Positions 33,001 through 42,000 of a DNA stretch of 64,000 nucleotides are shown here, in pieces (position 1 is the first letter of the stretch; the number at the start of each line of letters is the position of its first letter). The position numbers are program-made. This stretch comes from Alphaproteobacteria bacterium (lineage in GTDB: Bacteria; Pseudomonadota; Alphaproteobacteria; UBA828). The stretch spans positions 1,824,001-1,888,000 of the forward strand of contig OZ243972.1 in NCBI GenBank assembly GCA_965214705.1, read 5' to 3'.

Positions 33001-36000
33001 TCATCATGCGCCAGGCCGAGGTCTACGGGTATCGGCCGGAAGGGACCAATCCGTGCGTGGGCATCAAACGGTACCGCCGCCAGGGGCGGGAGCGCTTCCT
33101 GACGGCGGCGGAGCTCCGCCGCCTGGGCGCGATGCTGGCCCGCCACGAGGCCGGCCGCCCGCAGGTCGTGGCGATCATTCGGCTGTTGCTGCTCACCGGG
33201 TGCCGCAAGGGCGAGATCATCACGCTGAAGTGGCGCTACTACCGCGAGGGCAACCTGTTCCTGGCGGACAGCAAAGTCGGGCCGCGCTCGGTCTGGCTCT
33301 CGTCCGCCGCGCGCGAGGTTCTCGACAGCGTACCCCGCAGCCCGGTCTGGGTCTTCCCCTCGCCGCAAACTGACGGATGCCTGACCGTGGCCACACTCGA
33401 CCGGGCCTGGCAGCGCATCAGAGCCGAAGCGGACCTGCGCGATGTCCGTCTTCACGATTGCCGGCACACGTACGCCAGCATGGCGCTGGCACAGGGCGAG
33501 ACGGTGCTGACCATCGGCCGGCTGCTCGGACACCGCGATCCAGCAACGACGCTGAAATACACACACATGTCCGACATCATGGTGCACGAAGCCGCCGATA
33601 CCGTCGGCGTCGTCCTCAAGGGCTAGGCATGGCCGTGAAAAGGCGGCGTCTGACCGACGCCAACATCGCGAAGCTGGCGCCGAAGGCCCGCGAATACACG
33701 GTGTGGGACACGCGGCATGCCGGTCTCGGCGTGCGCATACGTCCGTCGGGGCACCGCAGCTTCGTCTACTGGCGGAAGGGCAAAGGCGGCGCGCGCAGGA
33801 TCACCCTCGGGTCTGCGGCGTTGATGAGCGTCGAGGAGGCGCGCGCCAAGTGCCTCGCCGTCGAGACCGCAGCCCTTGACGGCCAGCCGGAACGCGGAGA
33901 GGTCCCGACGTTCGCGGAGTTCGTCGCCGGGCCGGAGCGAGTCTTCTTCAACCGGGGCAAGCCGTCGACGCGGAAGGAGGCGAACCGGATGATCAACGCG
34001 CGTCTGCTTCCGGCCTTTGGATCGCTGCCGCTGGACCGGATCACCCGCGCCTGCGTGACCCGCTGGTTCGACGAGTTCAGCCGCACCGCGCCGGGCGGAG
34101 CCAATCATGCGTTGAACCTGCTCGGCAAGTTGCTGAACCACGCGATCGATTGCGGACATCTGCGGACGAACCCGGCCCGGAGCGTGAGGCGCAACCCCCG
34201 CCCCAAGCTCACCCGCTTCCTGTCTCGCGAGGAGGTCCGCCGTCTTCATCGTGCGCTCGACCGCCACGCCGTAGCACGGCCATTGTGCGCGCAACAGGCG
34301 GATATCATCCGCCTTCTCTTGCTGACCGGCTGCCGCCGGAGCGAGATCCTGACGCTGCGCTGGCAAGATGTGGAAGAGGACACGCTCAATCTCGGCGATG
34401 CCAAGAGCGGGCCCAGGCGGGTCTTTCTGAATGCGCCGGCCCGCGCGATCCTGAAGCGGCAGCCGCGATCCGCTTGCGCTTACGTCTTTCCTTCCCCGAA
34501 AAATCCCGGACGACCGCGTTCGCACAACCTGGCGCTCTGGCGTTCGGTGCGCAAGGAGGCCGGGATCGAGGATGTGCGCCTGCATGACCTCAGACACACG
34601 TACGCCAGCCACGCCGTGCTGCAAGGCGTCCCGTTGCCCGTCGTCTCACGCCTGCTCGGCCACAGGCGACCAAGCATGACGCTGCGCTATGCCCATGTCG
34701 GCGACCGCGAGACCGAAGCGGCATCGGAACGTATCGGTGCAGCTATCTCGCGAGCATTGGATGGCTGATTGCCTCACACCCGATCCACTTGCAAACTCCT
34801 GAGCGGATGCTGCAAGTGCTGGGCTCGCGGCCGGCACCGCAGCGGCCGATATGAAGAAGGTCACGCTCGGTACTGAGGGCGCCTACCCGCCCTTCAATTG
34901 GATCGACGAGAACGGCGACCTCCAGGGCTTCGACCTCGAAATCGGCAACGCGCTCTGCGCGGCGGCGAACCTGGAGTGCACCTGGGCGGTGAGCTACTTC
35001 TTCATCCTGCTCTCGCGCTTCATCGAGCACCGCCTCTCCGGCCACATGCGCGAGCGCCCGGCAAGCAGCAGCTCAATGTGCCGCGGCCGTCCGCTAAACC
35101 GCCATTGAGTGTTAAATCACAGAAGTGGGAGTTCGCTTTCGACCCGCCCCCCGATATTATGACACAGGAACCGCTGGAGCCCCGGAACCAATGGAATCGT
35201 GGCAACTGCTTGCAGACATCTGGGATAACGATGTCGCCCGGGCATTCTCTATCGCCATTGTCGTCATCCTTGCCCTGAGTCTACTCGGCTTGCGCTCCCT
35301 TGGCGCGTTAGCCGCCTTCTCTCAACACGGCACCACACTCTGCACAACGCTCGGCGTCCTAGGAACATTTACGGGCATCTTTCTAGGCCTTCTGCAATTC
35401 GATGTCGCCGAAATTGATGCCAGCGTGCCGGAACTCTTGGCGGGCCTCAAGATCGCGTTCTCCACCAGTATCGTGGGGTTAGGTGCGGCGGTGCTCCTCC
35501 GAGCCATCCGATCTTTTGTTCCAACTCGTTCCGAAGGCGCTACAGAGACAACGCCAGAAGCCATTCATCAGACGCTACGAGAAATCAACAACTCGATTAC
35601 CCAAGCTTCTAGAAACCAAGCCGAGGCTCTAACCCAGGTCAGAAGCGCAATTTCAGACGATACTGATAGCAGCCTGGTAACGCAGACACAAAAGCTGCGG
35701 ATAGCTGTTGAAGACGGCAATCTCCAACTGATCGAGCAGTTTAAGCAGTTCGCTGAAAGAATGGCGGAAAACAACTCTCGTGCACTAATCGAAGCACTGG
35801 AACAGGTGATCAGGGACTTTAACGGTAAGTGGGGCAAATTCTGGGAGCGCCAGGCTAACTCTGTCGTGGATAGCCGGTGAAAGTCCGGTGAAGGGAAGGA
35901 CTAACGAACCACCCTTGCCTTGAGCCGTGCGTCGGCCTTCGCGAGGAGGCAGGCGAAGCGTCGGTAGAGGTGCGCGTGGGCAGGACATTGAGCACCGAAA

Positions 36001-39000: not shown

Positions 39001-42000
39001 TCTGGAACTACCTCGGTGACCGCCTGGGCATCCCAGGTGCCGAAAGTGTCCCCTGGCTCCCGGACCTCGCGCGCCAGCGACCGACCGCTGGCCCAGTGCT
39101 CGCCCCGCAGGCCATCTGAGATCCTGCCCAAACCGGCCCTCAAGGGCGACTATCACGCCGCTTCATCCCAGGATTTGCCCCTCTTACGCTCCAAGTCTTG
39201 ATTGACTGAACATGCGCCAACAACGATCAAGGTCAACGCAAGCATGGGCCACTTCATTGTGTTCTCCTGATTTTATCTACTGCGGAGGTTGCACTCCAAT
39301 CGGGGGCAGGAGTTCTCGCATCCCCGTTAGCTGTGGACAATGGGCTCGCCGGGGTCCGAGATCAACGCCGCCATCCGCCGCGGCCTCGAAGACGAAGGGG
39401 TGCTGCACGGCCCAGAGCTGGGTGTTGTGCGGCGCGAAAGTGCGCCGAACAACACCTCAGGCTTGTGAGACTTTCTTGCCATCGTCGATCCTCCTCTTTC
39501 CATAACCTAAGGCTGGACCAATCTCATGGTGGAGGATCACTCTGCCTTACATTCGAGACTACTACTAATTTTCAATTCCTGGAGATCTATTTCGGTTTGA
39601 GAGTATACAGAAGTATCGCAACTGTAAATCGTGTAAACGTCCTTTGCTACGAGATGGTGGAAATCTCTGGGGCCTCACCTTCTCCCACAATCACTAATTT
39701 CGCGGTAAGGGGAACAGTTCTCTGTTGGTTCGTTATATGGAGCATTCCGTCGAAAGTGATGTTTTTGCGGTAGGAACGCCGGTTACCCAGCGCCCCCCGC
39801 ACAGATCCCCGCAGGCCCGTTAGGGCACGAGGCTCCTACCTTGAGTGGTTGACGGCAAATCGCTGGTTTGGCCAAGGGTGGCGGATGCTCAGTGGCGGCC
39901 AAAAGGCCCGCGCCAGGGCGCCGACCTTGGCCAGCGTGAAGCGGTCCTTTTGGGATCGGCGCCGCAGCACGCGACGCCATAGCCGCACGAGCCGGAACGT
40001 GAACTGCTTGAGGTACGGGAAGGTTAAGGGTTGGGCAGGCTCTCTCTCGAGAGCCTGCCCAACCCTTTTGAACGGAGGCGCGGGCCACGAGAGGCGAAGT
40101 TGAGCGTAAGCGTTACGCAGACCCCATGCCGGAATCTGGGTTGACTACGAGGGGGACTTGTTGAGGAGCGCCGTGAGCGCGCGAGTCAATTTGTCTCGGG
40201 CTCGAAGTTCCACGGCAGCAGTTCCTGGATTTTGGACTGCGGGTGACCCTTGGCGATCTTCTCGAGCGTGCTCCGCATCCAGGCGTAAGGCTCGACGCCG
40301 TTCATCTTGCAGGTCTCGATCAGCGATGCGATGCGGGCCCAGGCTTGCGCACCCTCGTCGTTGCCGGCGAAGAGCGCATTCTTGGCGGTGAGCTTCAGCG
40401 GGCGGATTCGGTTTTCCACCAGGTTCGAGTCGATCTCGACGCGGCCGTCGTGCAGGAACTCCAGCAGCCCGTCCCACTGGTTGGCGATATAGGTGAGCTT
40501 CTCGCCGAGACGCGAGCGCGGTGAGACCCGCGAGCGCTGTTCGTCGAGCCAGACACCGAAGGCGTTCACGATCGGCGCCGACTCCTCCCAGCGGATCGCC
40601 TGACGCGTCGCCGGCGGCTCGCCCCGGATCTTCTCCTCGATCGCATAGAGCGTCGCGATCCGCTTCAGGCCAGCCAGCGCGATCGGCGAGGCGCTCGAGT
40701 CGTACACCTCTTTCAGCTTGCGCCTGACGTGCGCCCAGCACAGAGCCCGCGTCACGGGGCCGCCGGGCCGGTCCGGCCGCGCCAGGATGTTGTGGCCCGA
40801 GTAGGCGTCGAGCTGCACCGTCCCCGAAAAGCCCTTCAAGAGCCTGGCGCCATACTTGCCGCCGCGACCGGGCTCATAGCGATAGACAACGCCCGGCGGG
40901 TCGGCGCCGCTCCAGTGGCGCTCGTCGCGCACAAGGGTCCACATGTAGCCCGTCTTCGTCTTGCCCCGGCCCGGGTCGAGAACGCGGATCGTGGTCTCGT
41001 CCAGACCCAGGTGATCCGACTTCTTCAGCTCATCCTTCAGGCAAGCGACCACGGGGCGCAGGTGAAACGACGCCTGCCCCACCCACGTCGCCAGCGTCGC
41101 ACGGTGAACCTCGATCCCCGAGCGCTCGTAAATCTGCGACTGACGGTAGAGCGGGCAATGATCGCCGTACTTCGCGATCAGCACCTGCGCCAGAAGAGCC
41201 TCGGTGGGAAGGCCGCCCTCCACCAGAGAGGCGGGCGCCGACGCCTGCACCACCCCGCCGCCCTTGCACTTGTTGCAGGCGTAGCGGGGGCGCACGGTCT
41301 CGATGACGGTGAACTTCGCCGGCTCATAGTCCAGCCGCTCGCTGCGGTCCTCGCCGATCTTCGTCATCTCGCCGCAGCCGCAGGGGCACATGATCGTGTC
41401 CGGCTCGATCACCTCCTCGCGCCGGTCGACCTGGGGCCCGAAGCGCACCCCGCTGCGCGACCCCCGGGAAGAGCGCCGCCGGCGCTTGCCGCCAGCCCCC
41501 TCGTCCTGCTCCTGGTCATCTGCCTCGGGCCGACCGCCGGCTTCAGCGATCGCCGCCCAAAACTCCTCGAACGTAAGCTGGCGCTCGTCCTCGTTGAGCT
41601 TCTCGGAGCGCGGACCGAACAGCGCCTTCCTGAGCTCCTTGTTGAGATGCTCAAGCCGGCTGATCTGCTCCGCGCTGTGCGCGTTCTCGGCCTCCAGCCG
41701 TGCCGCCCGCGCTTCCGCCGTCTGCCTCGCCGCCTCCGCCGCGCCGCGTGCCTGCTCCGCTTCGCATAGGGCTGCTTCGGTCGCACGGCGCGCCGCGCGC
41801 TCCTCGGCAAGCTCCGCCTGCAGGGTCGCCAGCGCCGCCGAAACCACCGCAGGCGACGGCGAACCGGCGCTGCTGAGGGGTGAGGGCGTGACCTTCGGCA
41901 TGGCCGATCCCTTAATCCGATTCGCCAATGCGTGACCAGGGAAAAGTGCAGGCGGGACCTCGACAAAAATCTGCGGACCCGCCTGCGTCTCGCCTCACTC

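Follow-up and report, generated by a model that had tools for sequence, protein, structure and literature searches.

The stretch of DNA analysed here (the window) comprises 64,000 nt of an alphaproteobacterial genome of the lineage UBA828 (assembly GCA_965214705.1, contig OZ243972.1, here C1, positions 1,824,001 to 1,888,000) and contains an IS66-like element with a group II intron inserted in its left inverted repeat. The whole occupied element spans 35825-39187 in window coordinates, both intron units included, and the two exact 671-nt units (35845-36515 and 36516-37186) abut head to tail with 0 bases between them. The features of the locus are as follows:

35825..35844, + strand: left inverted repeat of the IS, outer 20 nt, which form the intron 5' exon (from the sequence; inverted repeat with 39166-39187)
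35845..36515, + strand: first copy of the ORF-less group II intron, 671 nt long, with the RF02005 core in 35880-36100
~36134, + strand: end of domain II, intron copy 1
36204..36269, + strand: what is left, in decayed form, of the beginning of the lost reverse-transcriptase ORF in domain IV: 21 codons (MYDGEESDSVVVPLKRGNKGA) closed by a stop (alignment and translation)
36444-36476, + strand: domain V, copy 1, starting GAGCC with the AGC triad (RF00029 alignment)
36477-36513, + strand: domain VI, copy 1, with a bulged A at 36508, the 8th nucleotide from the 3' end
36516..37186, + strand: second, identical copy of the ORF-less intron, with the last base of copy 1 as its 5' neighbour
37187..39187, + strand: body of the IS66-like element (four other genome copies at ~95%)
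37452-39119, + strand: single transposase ORF, 555 aa (Pfam DDE_Tnp_IS66)
39166-39187: right inverted repeat, unoccupied, with a minus-strand target site between 39168 and 39167

At the tandem, TRF gave a period of 671, 2.0 copies and a 100% match, and the two copies without an intervening base that a preliminary description had placed at C1:1859845-1861186 are thus borne out in the assembly. The genome search likewise recovered the five identical ORF-less copies named there (C1:421561-422231, 1859845-1860515, 1860516-1861186 and 2635805-2636475, and C3:1789188-1789858), which are 100% identical over 671 nt, together with three 5' remnants of 289 nt at 94-96% identity. Each unit covers the full model 1-225 of RF02005 at 168.1 bits (gathering score 49) and reaches 32.8 bits with RF00029 (gathering score 40), in a match that stops at the unit's last base, by which both of the scores given earlier were reproduced per unit.

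The host element has 22-bp inverted repeats and a transposase that matches Pfam DDE_Tnp_IS66 at 43.4 bits (cut-off 23.1), over profile positions 147-281 only, and NCBIfam transpos_IS66 at 85 bits, below the cut-off of 180. The IS66 family is characterized by an 8-bp target duplication and by inverted repeats starting GTAA; in the present case, 8-bp duplications surround the IS copies A, B and D of the genome and the copy of the congener G004, and the repeats read GTAAG(A/T)GGGGCAAAT... The element lacks the two accessory ORFs, tnpA and tnpB, that canonical IS66 elements have; its length of 2.0 kb fits one long ORF, and in this single-ORF organization we take it to resemble the ISBst12 group of IS66. 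A canonical IS66 next door carries all three ORFs. The window's own IS copy is without a target duplication (CTTTAACG versus GCTCCAAG).

Anatomy and target pairing of the intron unit

In the alignment with three relatives that encode a reverse transcriptase (RT), the unit could be followed past the start codon and ~65 codons into the RT ORF, with the homology continuing out of frame until ~36400, and again over ~10 nt directly before domain V. Hence the unit has kept ~200 nt of decayed 5' RT coding sequence and ~10 nt of the RT 3' end, and the ORF scan and translation show no RT-encoding ORF in it. On this alignment, the 671-nt unit is a deletion derivative of an RT-encoding group II intron.

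The domain V of the unit reads GAGCC...GGAUCU. The consensus of the group II intron 5' end is GUGYG, and the start GAGCG, as well as the RF00029 score under the gathering score, had been put forward as doubts. However, GAGCG also begins the intact RT-encoding intron W of the same genome, while V starts with GAGTG, and X and Y with GTGCG, so that it is a clade variant. The intact W gave no match to RF00029 at E<=0.01, and two other RT-encoding relatives reached 34.2-36.4 bits, under the gathering score as well; therefore, neither feature need be a mark of decay.

The elements of the target pairing, all on the + strand, were located as follows:

36029-36034: EBS1, CCAGAA, which fills an 8-nt hairpin loop except for its first 2 nt
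35839-35844: IBS1, TTCTGG, positions -6..-1, complementary to EBS1 at 6/6 here
36002-36005: EBS2 candidate, UGCC
35833-35836: IBS2 candidate, GGCA, positions -12..-9
36093: EBS3 candidate, C249, which pairs with G at +1

In eight lineages (the ORF-less unit, W, V, Y, X, G047, G004 and G017), every one with a different sequence, EBS1 matches the 6 exon nucleotides that precede the insertion, the pairing being 6/6 (Watson-Crick or G-U) in seven of them and 5/6 in G017. Through this covariation with the 5' exon EBS1 could be assigned, and the earlier statement that EBS and IBS were not assigned now holds only in so far as EBS2 (UGCC) and EBS3 (C249) are candidates. The candidate EBS2 pairing has only 4 bp, with a register shifted by 1 nt in W. 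Nucleotide 249 is the single column of ~355 aligned that is Watson-Crick to exon position +1 in six lineages, for which the expectation is estimated at ~0.09 if columns are random, and EBS3 could thus be due to chance.

The helper RT had been described as unknown, and candidates have now been found, with 43 maturase-domain (GIIM) matches in the genome. The intron W on contig 2 has an intact protein of 492 aa, in which YADD, RVT_1 and, weakly, GIIM were recognized; an HNH domain is missing from this protein and from those of this intron clade. W is top-scoring among the resident introns compared with the unit (73.4% identity in D1, 71.0% in domain IVa), although V, at 72.7% in a shorter stretch of domain IVa, is marginally above it in percent identity, and by similarity W is the best helper candidate. 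Since the identity of no resident full-length intron with the unit exceeds 74%, be it in D1 or in domain IVa, the choice of the helper is a guess, and the parent intron is absent from the genome.

Origin of the tandem

Among the matches listed in the Logan contigs, the full intron interior was present in all four runs examined, from three studies; the 5' junction with the IS repeat occurred with new outer flanks in runs X1 and X5, and without the outer flank in run X4. The junction 36515|36516 was bridged by none among the matches listed (32 contig pieces, four public runs), and the tandem junction is known from the assembly alone. Public RNA runs contained only 0.07-0.12 of the words.

It is unlikely that an assembly error made a tandem of a locus with truly one intron copy, despite the facts that the unit is a five-copy exact repeat, that the junction is unbridged among those matches (from runs that may represent other strains), and that exact duplications (2.0 copies, period 161-336 nt) occur at four other places of the assembly. 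Mis-joined dispersed copies should not yield a head-to-tail junction, because the junction words would have to exist in the reads. Moreover, no further intron or IS of this repeat-rich assembly is found tandemly repeated at periods of 150-2000 nt, the limits of the duplication agree with the intron ends within 1 nt, and the same product is given experimentally by the intron RmInt2, according to the part of the report available (PMC4615759). A still smaller chance has to be left to an event at the level of DNA or cDNA without a second homing, namely unequal exchange, replication slippage or multi-round reverse transcription of circular intron RNA. Head-to-tail RNA circles are formed by group II introns, as stated in the available parts of PMC4478347 and PMC8266578, and one G is common to both boundaries; however, 1 nt of homology is very little for duplicating exactly one intron length, no precedent was found in the literature for the integration of a two-unit cDNA, and the RmInt2 report, in its available part, provides a simpler, demonstrated route (PMC4615759).

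By that route, re-homing, the tandem is explained here. With the first copy in place, the junction of 5' exon and intron would still read -20..-1 plus G and the target would persist, because nucleotide 1 of the intron (G) is the same as target position +1 (G); a second retrohoming, for which there is the experimental precedent, then probably put another copy directly upstream of the first. The left repeat in the window is the genome's only site with a perfect IBS1, and it may have been hit twice for this reason. Pairing alone, however, is no predictor of occupancy, since matching sites are empty: this concerns the seemingly perfect site at C3:2378130 (minus strand, GGGGCACTTTCTGG|GAC), 11 of the 12 IS91 sites and 3 of the 9 IS ends. 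At the three 5' junctions of the remnants the target -20..+1 is identical to that of the tandem site, but a second copy is found at none of them. The GC skew is too faint for judging the strand bias expected of endonuclease-free introns.

Insertion sites, remnants and the spread of the copies

The insertion 20 nt inside the IS inverted repeat, claimed earlier for four of the five copies and for either IS end, was confirmed by reading the flanks, in which the 5' flank GTAAG(A/T)GGGGCAAAT(C/T)(C/T)TGG of these four is the outer 20 nt of the repeat. The full intron is found at the left end of copy C and at the right ends of copies B and D, always at the same repeat position, and the seven junctions ...TGG|GAGCGCC previously counted in this genome were reproduced by the motif scan, six of them at IS ends and one at the look-alike fifth site, within an IS91-family transposase gene in sense orientation. 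The congener G004 serves as the empty-site control, with the same IS without intron, both repeats intact and an 8-bp duplication (TGGCCATG).

The 289-nt remnants, with the content DI-DII, are located at the left ends of IS copies A, B and D, where an older insertion has evidently lost everything past domain II plus ~9 nt of the IS. The preliminary description was right about three remnant-bearing IS copies, but had an intact 8-bp duplication for only one, while the reading of the ends revealed it in all three, each time with a different sequence (TTGCAATC, AGTAGTTG, GAGAGATG). These three different duplications substantiate its view that the IS has moved with intron sequence inside, and the IS with the 289-nt remnant has evidently transposed since then at least twice, which implies that the IS can transpose with just the terminal 20 of its 22 repeat bases. 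Its mention of the remnant in contigs of two other runs also stands, with the junction found in X1 and X4 among the matches listed. In the remnant, EBS1 and the candidate EBS2 are still present and match the repeat of the IS itself. It is a rather doubtful idea that the DI-DII remnant is kept for a function, for example as a decoy that catches intron RNPs or as a cis RNA with an effect on read-through towards the transposase.

For the five identical copies, separate and recent insertions, five in number, are the best reading, because copies A and D of the IS show no difference over 2291 nt and yet the full intron is in D only; copy B, with 30 mismatches and 5 gap columns against A/D, has a full intron as well. 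That the copies are no longer active and were only carried passively, through recombination or with the transposing IS instead of by retrohoming, is hardly credible, although the IS does move with the intron sequence inside, given this difference between A and D, the occurrence of the full intron at left or right ends with the repeat tip always as the 5' exon, the single copy in an unrelated IS91-type gene with 11 sister copies empty, and 0 substitutions among the five 671-nt copies versus 1.3-5.3% between the IS bodies.

The preferred account, to which we give a probability of about 0.78, is that of a non-autonomous intron which is mobilised in trans and homes into the IS repeat, with the tandem made by re-homing and the remnant carried by the IS. 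As judged from sequence, this reading is supported in that it fits every test run. The 671-nt unit would have arisen from an RT-encoding intron via an internal deletion in domain IV and would remain an active ribozyme and retroelement, for which the RT/maturase of a related resident intron probably acts in trans, splicing the unit and forming the RNP; an endonuclease domain is missing from these enzymes. The intron RNA would reverse-splice into DNA that pairs with EBS1, the candidate EBS2 and the candidate EBS3, as the complementarity indicates. Since the target is formed by the outer portion of the 22-bp inverted repeat, each IS provides two sites, one per strand.

Known systems and significance

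The closest counterpart is RmInt2 of Sinorhizobium meliloti GR4, which, in the available part of Martinez-Rodriguez et al. 2014 (PMC4615759), enters ISRm17 at either inverted repeat, yields a product with two head-to-tail copies in homing assays, credited by the authors to the EBS3 pairing with the intron's first G, and can be moved as a deltaORF donor by the protein of RmInt1, the two introns being 72% identical. Within that same part of the source, both systems target the terminal inverted repeats of an IS, with two sites per IS on opposite strands, tolerate an EBS2 pairing of just 4 bp (here a candidate pairing), have genomic copies that are all identical, and involve a protein without an endonuclease domain (here, that of the candidate helpers). 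In contrast to the 671-nt unit, RmInt2 encodes its own protein; its head-to-tail product was obtained on assay plasmids, whereas the present one is in a chromosome assembly; and its EBS3/IBS3 is U-A, with a U-G wobble to G1, while the candidate C-G would serve for both here (PMC4615759, in the part available). ISRm17 belongs to the ISNCY/ISDol1 group (PMC10194956), whereas the host element here is IS66-like.

The ORF-less introns of Thermosynechococcus elongatus, with N- and C-terminal ORF remnants, are moved by 'driver' proteins according to the available part of Mohr et al. 2010 (PMC2882425). With TeI3, as presented there, the unit shares the domain IV deletion, the ORF remnants on both sides and the broken frame, the proteins of related introns as the mobilisers (here probable ones), and the twintrons in the same genome, with the inner intron near the start of the outer intron's ORF; TeI3 differs in the host and intron lineage, in targets other than IS repeats, and in that its mobility was shown by assay, while that of the unit is a probable one. 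Like the remnant, FRE652, a persistent RmInt1-like 5' fragment of DI-DIII and part of DIV (PMC5894124), is a 3'-truncated fragment with 5' domains that is long-lasting in genomes; however, FRE652 is not described inside a transposing IS, while the present remnant has DI-DII only, lies 20 nt inside the IS end and is copied by transposition.

Thus, the targeting of IS repeats with head-to-tail copies, for RmInt2/ISRm17 (PMC4615759), and the trans-mobilised ORF-less introns (PMC2882425) have already been published, as the available parts of both papers state, and the locus is clearly a natural example of known behaviour and no new kind of element. The current picture of group II intron function is unchanged by these findings. 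Their value is that of a natural case of some clarity: the five copies are identical, an EBS/IBS code can be assigned, the intron-free IS of the congener is a control, and there is evidence that an IS remains able to transpose with a foreign insert of ~300 nt located 20 nt inside its end. The tandem is a possible chromosomal counterpart of the head-to-tail product of the RmInt2 assays. It is a rather doubtful proposal that the non-autonomous intron is a lasting hitch-hiker of the IS66-like element, in a pair of which the IS spreads both across replicons and strains and, by transposing with an intron-bearing end, may also bring fresh homing sites; if it is true, the natural tandem would be the first chromosomal record of re-homing that builds intron arrays. 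With its 43 maturase-domain matches, twintrons and nested IS elements, the genome is well suited to the question of which protein drives a non-autonomous intron.

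Intron units and their IS66-like host

The preliminary description had claimed a tandem of introns, and it is present in the assembly as two exact units (TRF period 671, 2.0 copies, 100% match).

Features of the tandem and its host element in the window
35845-36515 (+), ORF-less group II intron unit, copy 1, 671 nt
36516-37186 (+), intron unit, copy 2, identical, 671 nt, 0 bases after copy 1
35825-39187, IS66-like element (IS copy C), 2.0 kb without introns
37452-39119, its one ORF, 555 aa

Both units give a full-length match to RF02005, the model for domain I of group II introns (168.1 bits each; gathering score 49), and at their 3' ends a match to the domain V/VI model RF00029 (32.8 bits each; gathering score 40). 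In the genome under study, G000 (contigs C1-C3), there are five 100% identical units, at C1:421561, C1:1859845, C1:1860516, C1:2635805 and C3:1789188, besides three 5' pieces of 289 nt with 94-96% identity to the unit. The literature on the Rfam family name gave no information on the intron class.

The unit was aligned with three RT-encoding relatives, namely the intron W of G000 and the introns of the congener G004 and of the genome G047. The homology spans domains I-III and continues through the start codon for some 65 codons of the reverse-transcriptase (RT) reading frame. The unit's version of this ORF-start stretch is MYDGEESDSVVVPLKRGNKGA, directly followed by a stop and then out of frame, and the homology restarts about 10 nt 5' of domain V. 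Because of these two limits, an internal deletion of domain IV is indicated, and the unit can be regarded as a deletion derivative of an RT-encoding intron. Domain V contains the AGC triad, and the bulged A of domain VI is the 8th nucleotide from the 3' end. Earlier doubts over the 5' end GAGCG and the low RF00029 score were not upheld, since the intact W intron also starts with GAGCG and the resident intron V with GAGTG, and W gives no RF00029 match at E<=0.01, with two other RT-encoding relatives scoring a sub-gathering 34.2-36.4 bits.

The 555-aa ORF of the host element matches the Pfam IS66 DDE domain partially (43.4 bits) and the NCBIfam IS66 model with 85 bits, under the cut-off of 180. 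The element has neither tnpA nor tnpB, differs from the canonical IS66 located 2.6 kb further on, and is called here IS66-like, of the single-ORF type. Its inverted repeats are GTAAG(A/T)GGGGCAAAT(C/T)(C/T)TGGG and its target duplications are of 8 bp, those of copies A, B and D being different (TTGCAATC, AGTAGTTG, GAGAGATG) and copy C having none. At the left IS end the intron is flanked by GTAAGTGGGGCAAATTCTGG (5' exon) and GGACGG (3' exon).

Copies of the IS66-like element in G000 and the intron sequence at their ends
Copy A, C1:1501614-1503904: left end, 289-nt remnant; right end, no intron sequence
Copy B, C1:421541-424505 (-): left end, remnant; right end, full intron
Copy C, the window's copy: left end, two full units; right end, no intron sequence
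Copy D, C1:2635785-2638746 (-): left end, remnant; right end, full intron
Copy E, C1:4122988-4124596 (-): left end truncated; right end, no intron sequence

Nine IS ends are present, with a full intron at three, the remnant at three and no intron sequence at three; the intron is read inward in every case, and its 5' exon consists of the outermost 20 nt of the repeat. The congener G004 carries one copy of the IS (86% identity; locus L021, G004:C1:5294977-5299823, IS at 1404-3476), with both repeats intact (GTAAG(T/A)GGGGCAAATTCTGGGG), the duplication TGGCCATG and no intron, and this copy can serve as an empty-site control. It shows a repeat about 22 bp long, and therefore the entry of the intron is placed between repeat positions 20 and 21. 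In the G004 copy, the left repeat is followed by 31 nt that were considered as intron nt 1-23; this reading was rejected, as 363 of 2000 shuffles match as well. A stretch of the same copy about 82-126 nt from the left end resembles nt 4-48 of the group II intron of G004 itself (0 of 1000 shuffles) and may be an old footprint; the likeness of the homologous stretch in the G000 copies is below significance.

Target recognition and the tandem

Ten 5' regions were aligned together with their flanks. In eight lineages, with sequences that are all different, an 8-nt hairpin loop ends in 6 nt that are complementary to the hexamer directly 5' of the insertion, and from this conserved complementarity the intron target-pairing site EBS1 was assigned to window 36029-36034.

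EBS1 and its exon partner IBS1 in eight lineages
ORF-less unit: CCAGAA, UUCUGG
W: CUCAUC, GAUGAG
V: UGAGCA, UGCUCA
Y: CAGAUU, AGUCUG
X: UUCGUU, AGCGGA
G047: CAGAUC, GAUCUG
G004: AUCAGC, GCUGGU
G017: CCCAUA, AAUGGG (5/6 pairs)

Within the internal loop AAAAUGCCGUCAUU, UGCC (window 36002-36005) is an EBS2 candidate, with GGCA at -12..-9 as its predicted partner; the resident intron Y and the G004 intron pair alike, and the register of W is shifted by one nucleotide, so that this assignment is weaker than that of EBS1. The delta-delta' reading of the +1 contact was rejected, as EBS1 is preceded by U in 8/8 lineages and this base does not covary with +1. The single aligned column that is Watson-Crick to exon +1 in six lineages is nt 249 (window 36093, in GUGUC-C-AAGA), about 0.09 such columns being expected by chance by our own estimate, and this nucleotide is a candidate EBS3, separate from the EBS1 neighbour. 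Among the occupied sites, the perfect IBS1 (TTCTGG) is found only in the window's left repeat, the others being TCCTGG, TCTTGG and ATCTGG. Pairing is not sufficient for insertion, since the site C3:2378130 (-), GGGGCACTTTCTGG followed by GAC, contains no intron although IBS1 is perfect, the GGCA block is present and +1 is G; three IS ends and 11 of the 12 IS91 sites are likewise empty. The cumulative GC skew was weak and irregular in the three contigs.

At the site of the tandem, the natural target has G at +1 and the intron also starts with G, and therefore the 5' exon-intron junction still shows -20..-1 and G after one insertion. A second reverse-splicing at this junction would add a new unit that abuts the first on its upstream side without intervening bases, and the arrangement in the assembly matches that outcome. 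Such head-to-tail re-homing has been reported for RmInt2 by Martinez-Rodriguez et al. (PMC4615759). That the tandem is instead an artefact of assembly is improbable, as a head-to-tail junction would presumably need reads containing it, no other intron or IS is among the tandem repeats with a period of 150-2000 nt in this repeat-rich assembly, and the duplication starts and stops within one base of the intron ends. The circularly permuted stretch 36180-36850 was also compared with the contigs of the public sequencing runs X1, X4, X5 and X6 (Logan contigs); no bridge across the junction of 36515 and 36516 was found among the 32 contig pieces listed for these four runs (94 further pieces lay outside the listing), which neither supports nor refutes the tandem, and the 671-nt back-jump joint in these contigs represents the ordinary linear intron only.

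Four other exact two-copy tandem duplications were observed in the assembly, at window 50538-50867 (period 164 nt), C1:2074722-2075111 (194 nt), C2:515547-516218 (336 nt) and C3:1289865-1290186 (161 nt).

Probable independent insertions and transposition with the remnant

Once the full introns are taken out, copies A and D of the IS show the same sequence along 2291 nt, and only D bears the intron in its right repeat. Copy B, with an intron-bearing right repeat as well, has 30 mismatches and 5 gap columns relative to A and D; the difference of copy C from the other three (A, B and D) is about 5%. The five intron units show zero differences among themselves. The fifth unit (C3:1789188-1789858; locus L001, 1501-2171) is inserted in sense inside an IS91-type transposase gene, with Zn_Tnp_IS91 and Y2_Tnp on two exons, at GGGGCAGAATCTGG followed by G, and the same site is empty in 11 of the 12 copies of this IS91-type element. 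The simplest account would be that retrohoming took place five times recently (at B right, at D right, twice at C left and once at the IS91 site) and that an older insertion became the remnant.

The remnant comprises intron nt 1-289, its 3' limit being the 3' strand of domain II, and is followed by about 12 nt poorly alignable to the IS, after which the IS continues from about the 30th base past the insertion site; by these positions the deletion took out about 9 nt of the IS as well as intron domains III-VI. As a target, the 5' junctions of the remnants do not differ from the tandem site, yet no second copy is present there. One junction is common to three IS copies that each have a duplication of their own, and A and D are the same in sequence, so that the IS, with the remnant in it, must have transposed recently; a tip with 20 of the 22 repeat bases evidently suffices for it. 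FRE652 is a known case of a group II intron 5' fragment that persists (PMC5894124) and a precedent for the remnant. The preliminary description, by which an ORF-less intron homes into the IS repeat and the IS has moved with intron sequence inside, was of a real observation and read it correctly.

Related introns, distribution and novelty

G000 contains 43 maturase-domain matches, and 27 matches to RF02005 exceed the gathering score. An intact intron of the same clade as the unit, W (C2:590966-592876 (-), 1911 nt), encodes a protein of 492 aa with YADD, RVT_1, a weak GIIM match and no HNH. Of the resident introns compared with the unit, W scored highest (73.4% identity in domain I, 71.0% in domain IVa with the ORF start), V was marginally above it in percent identity over a shorter IVa stretch (72.7%), and X was nearest in domains V-VI (91.6%); all of them are too distant to be the parent. 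The full-length G004 intron was rejected as parent: it has the closest domain I (82%, nt 7-298, 9-11 copies), its EBS1, AUCAGC, is different and the IS is not targeted. Cross-mobilisation at about 72% identity is described for RmInt2 deltaORF with the RmInt1 protein, and 'driver' proteins mobilise ORF-less introns in T. elongatus (PMC4615759 and PMC2882425, respectively). Which protein would move the unit in trans is a guess. In runs X1 and X4, a loose end resembles W domain V, hinting that W and the unit may co-occur elsewhere, a weak point in favour of W.

Two W copies, at C2:398565-402499 (-) and C3:92354-96288 (+), are twintrons with the layout of those of T. elongatus. They bear a second group II intron of 2024 nt (5' end GTGTG), whose insertion point follows W nt 395 and lies 12 codons from the start of the W protein ORF, directly before the second in-frame ATG. 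The protein of this inner intron accounts for 16 identical top-scoring maturase matches in G000, and its gene is also found inside X- and Y-family introns. Another W-family copy lies in the window, its RT ORF being interrupted by about 5.6 kb of mobile DNA and its 3' end located 577 nt from the IS66-like element.

Other features of the window
33377-34768 (+), tyrosine integrase gene (Phage_integrase, Arm-DNA-bind_3), just upstream of the IS66-like element
35125-35880 (+), 251-aa open frame, from lower-GC-looking DNA into the left IS end
39764-47277 (-), W-family intron copy (3' end 39764-39841; RT ORF 45598-46998)
42342-42980, 41995-42345 and 40186-41928, tnpA, tnpB and tnpC of the canonical IS66 within it
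43267-44508, IS91-type Y2 transposase within it
44515-45555, tyrosine recombinase within it

An integrated element seems to contain the IS, and transcription running on from the 251-aa frame could cover the tandem in sense.

Among 60 relatives and the 48 other genomes of the order, the exact unit was not found outside G000. The exact repeat-intron junction pattern and the EBS1 hairpin pattern each had 0 matches in species-representative genomes and 0 in JGI metagenome contigs, and none of the plasmid records reaches 80% coverage of the unit, the best among the matches listed being 68.3% identical over 74%. In public runs, part of the query was present in 20 of the 24 rows listed, with at least half of its words in 4. 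The intron interior was present in 4/4 runs compared (3 studies); the repeat-intron 5' junction had new outer flanks in X1 and X5 and no outer flank in X4, and the remnant junction was present in X1 and X4.

Several components have precedents: RmInt2 combines the targeting of IS repeats with head-to-tail re-homing, as read here for the unit, and the ORF-less TeI3 introns of T. elongatus have the same anatomy, with an internal domain IV deletion (PMC2882425). ORF-less introns have been called rare in bacteria (PMC4424553). What is new is the combination of these features, together with the IS family and the possible chromosomal tandem, and clear evidence of transposition of the IS with intron sequence in its end.
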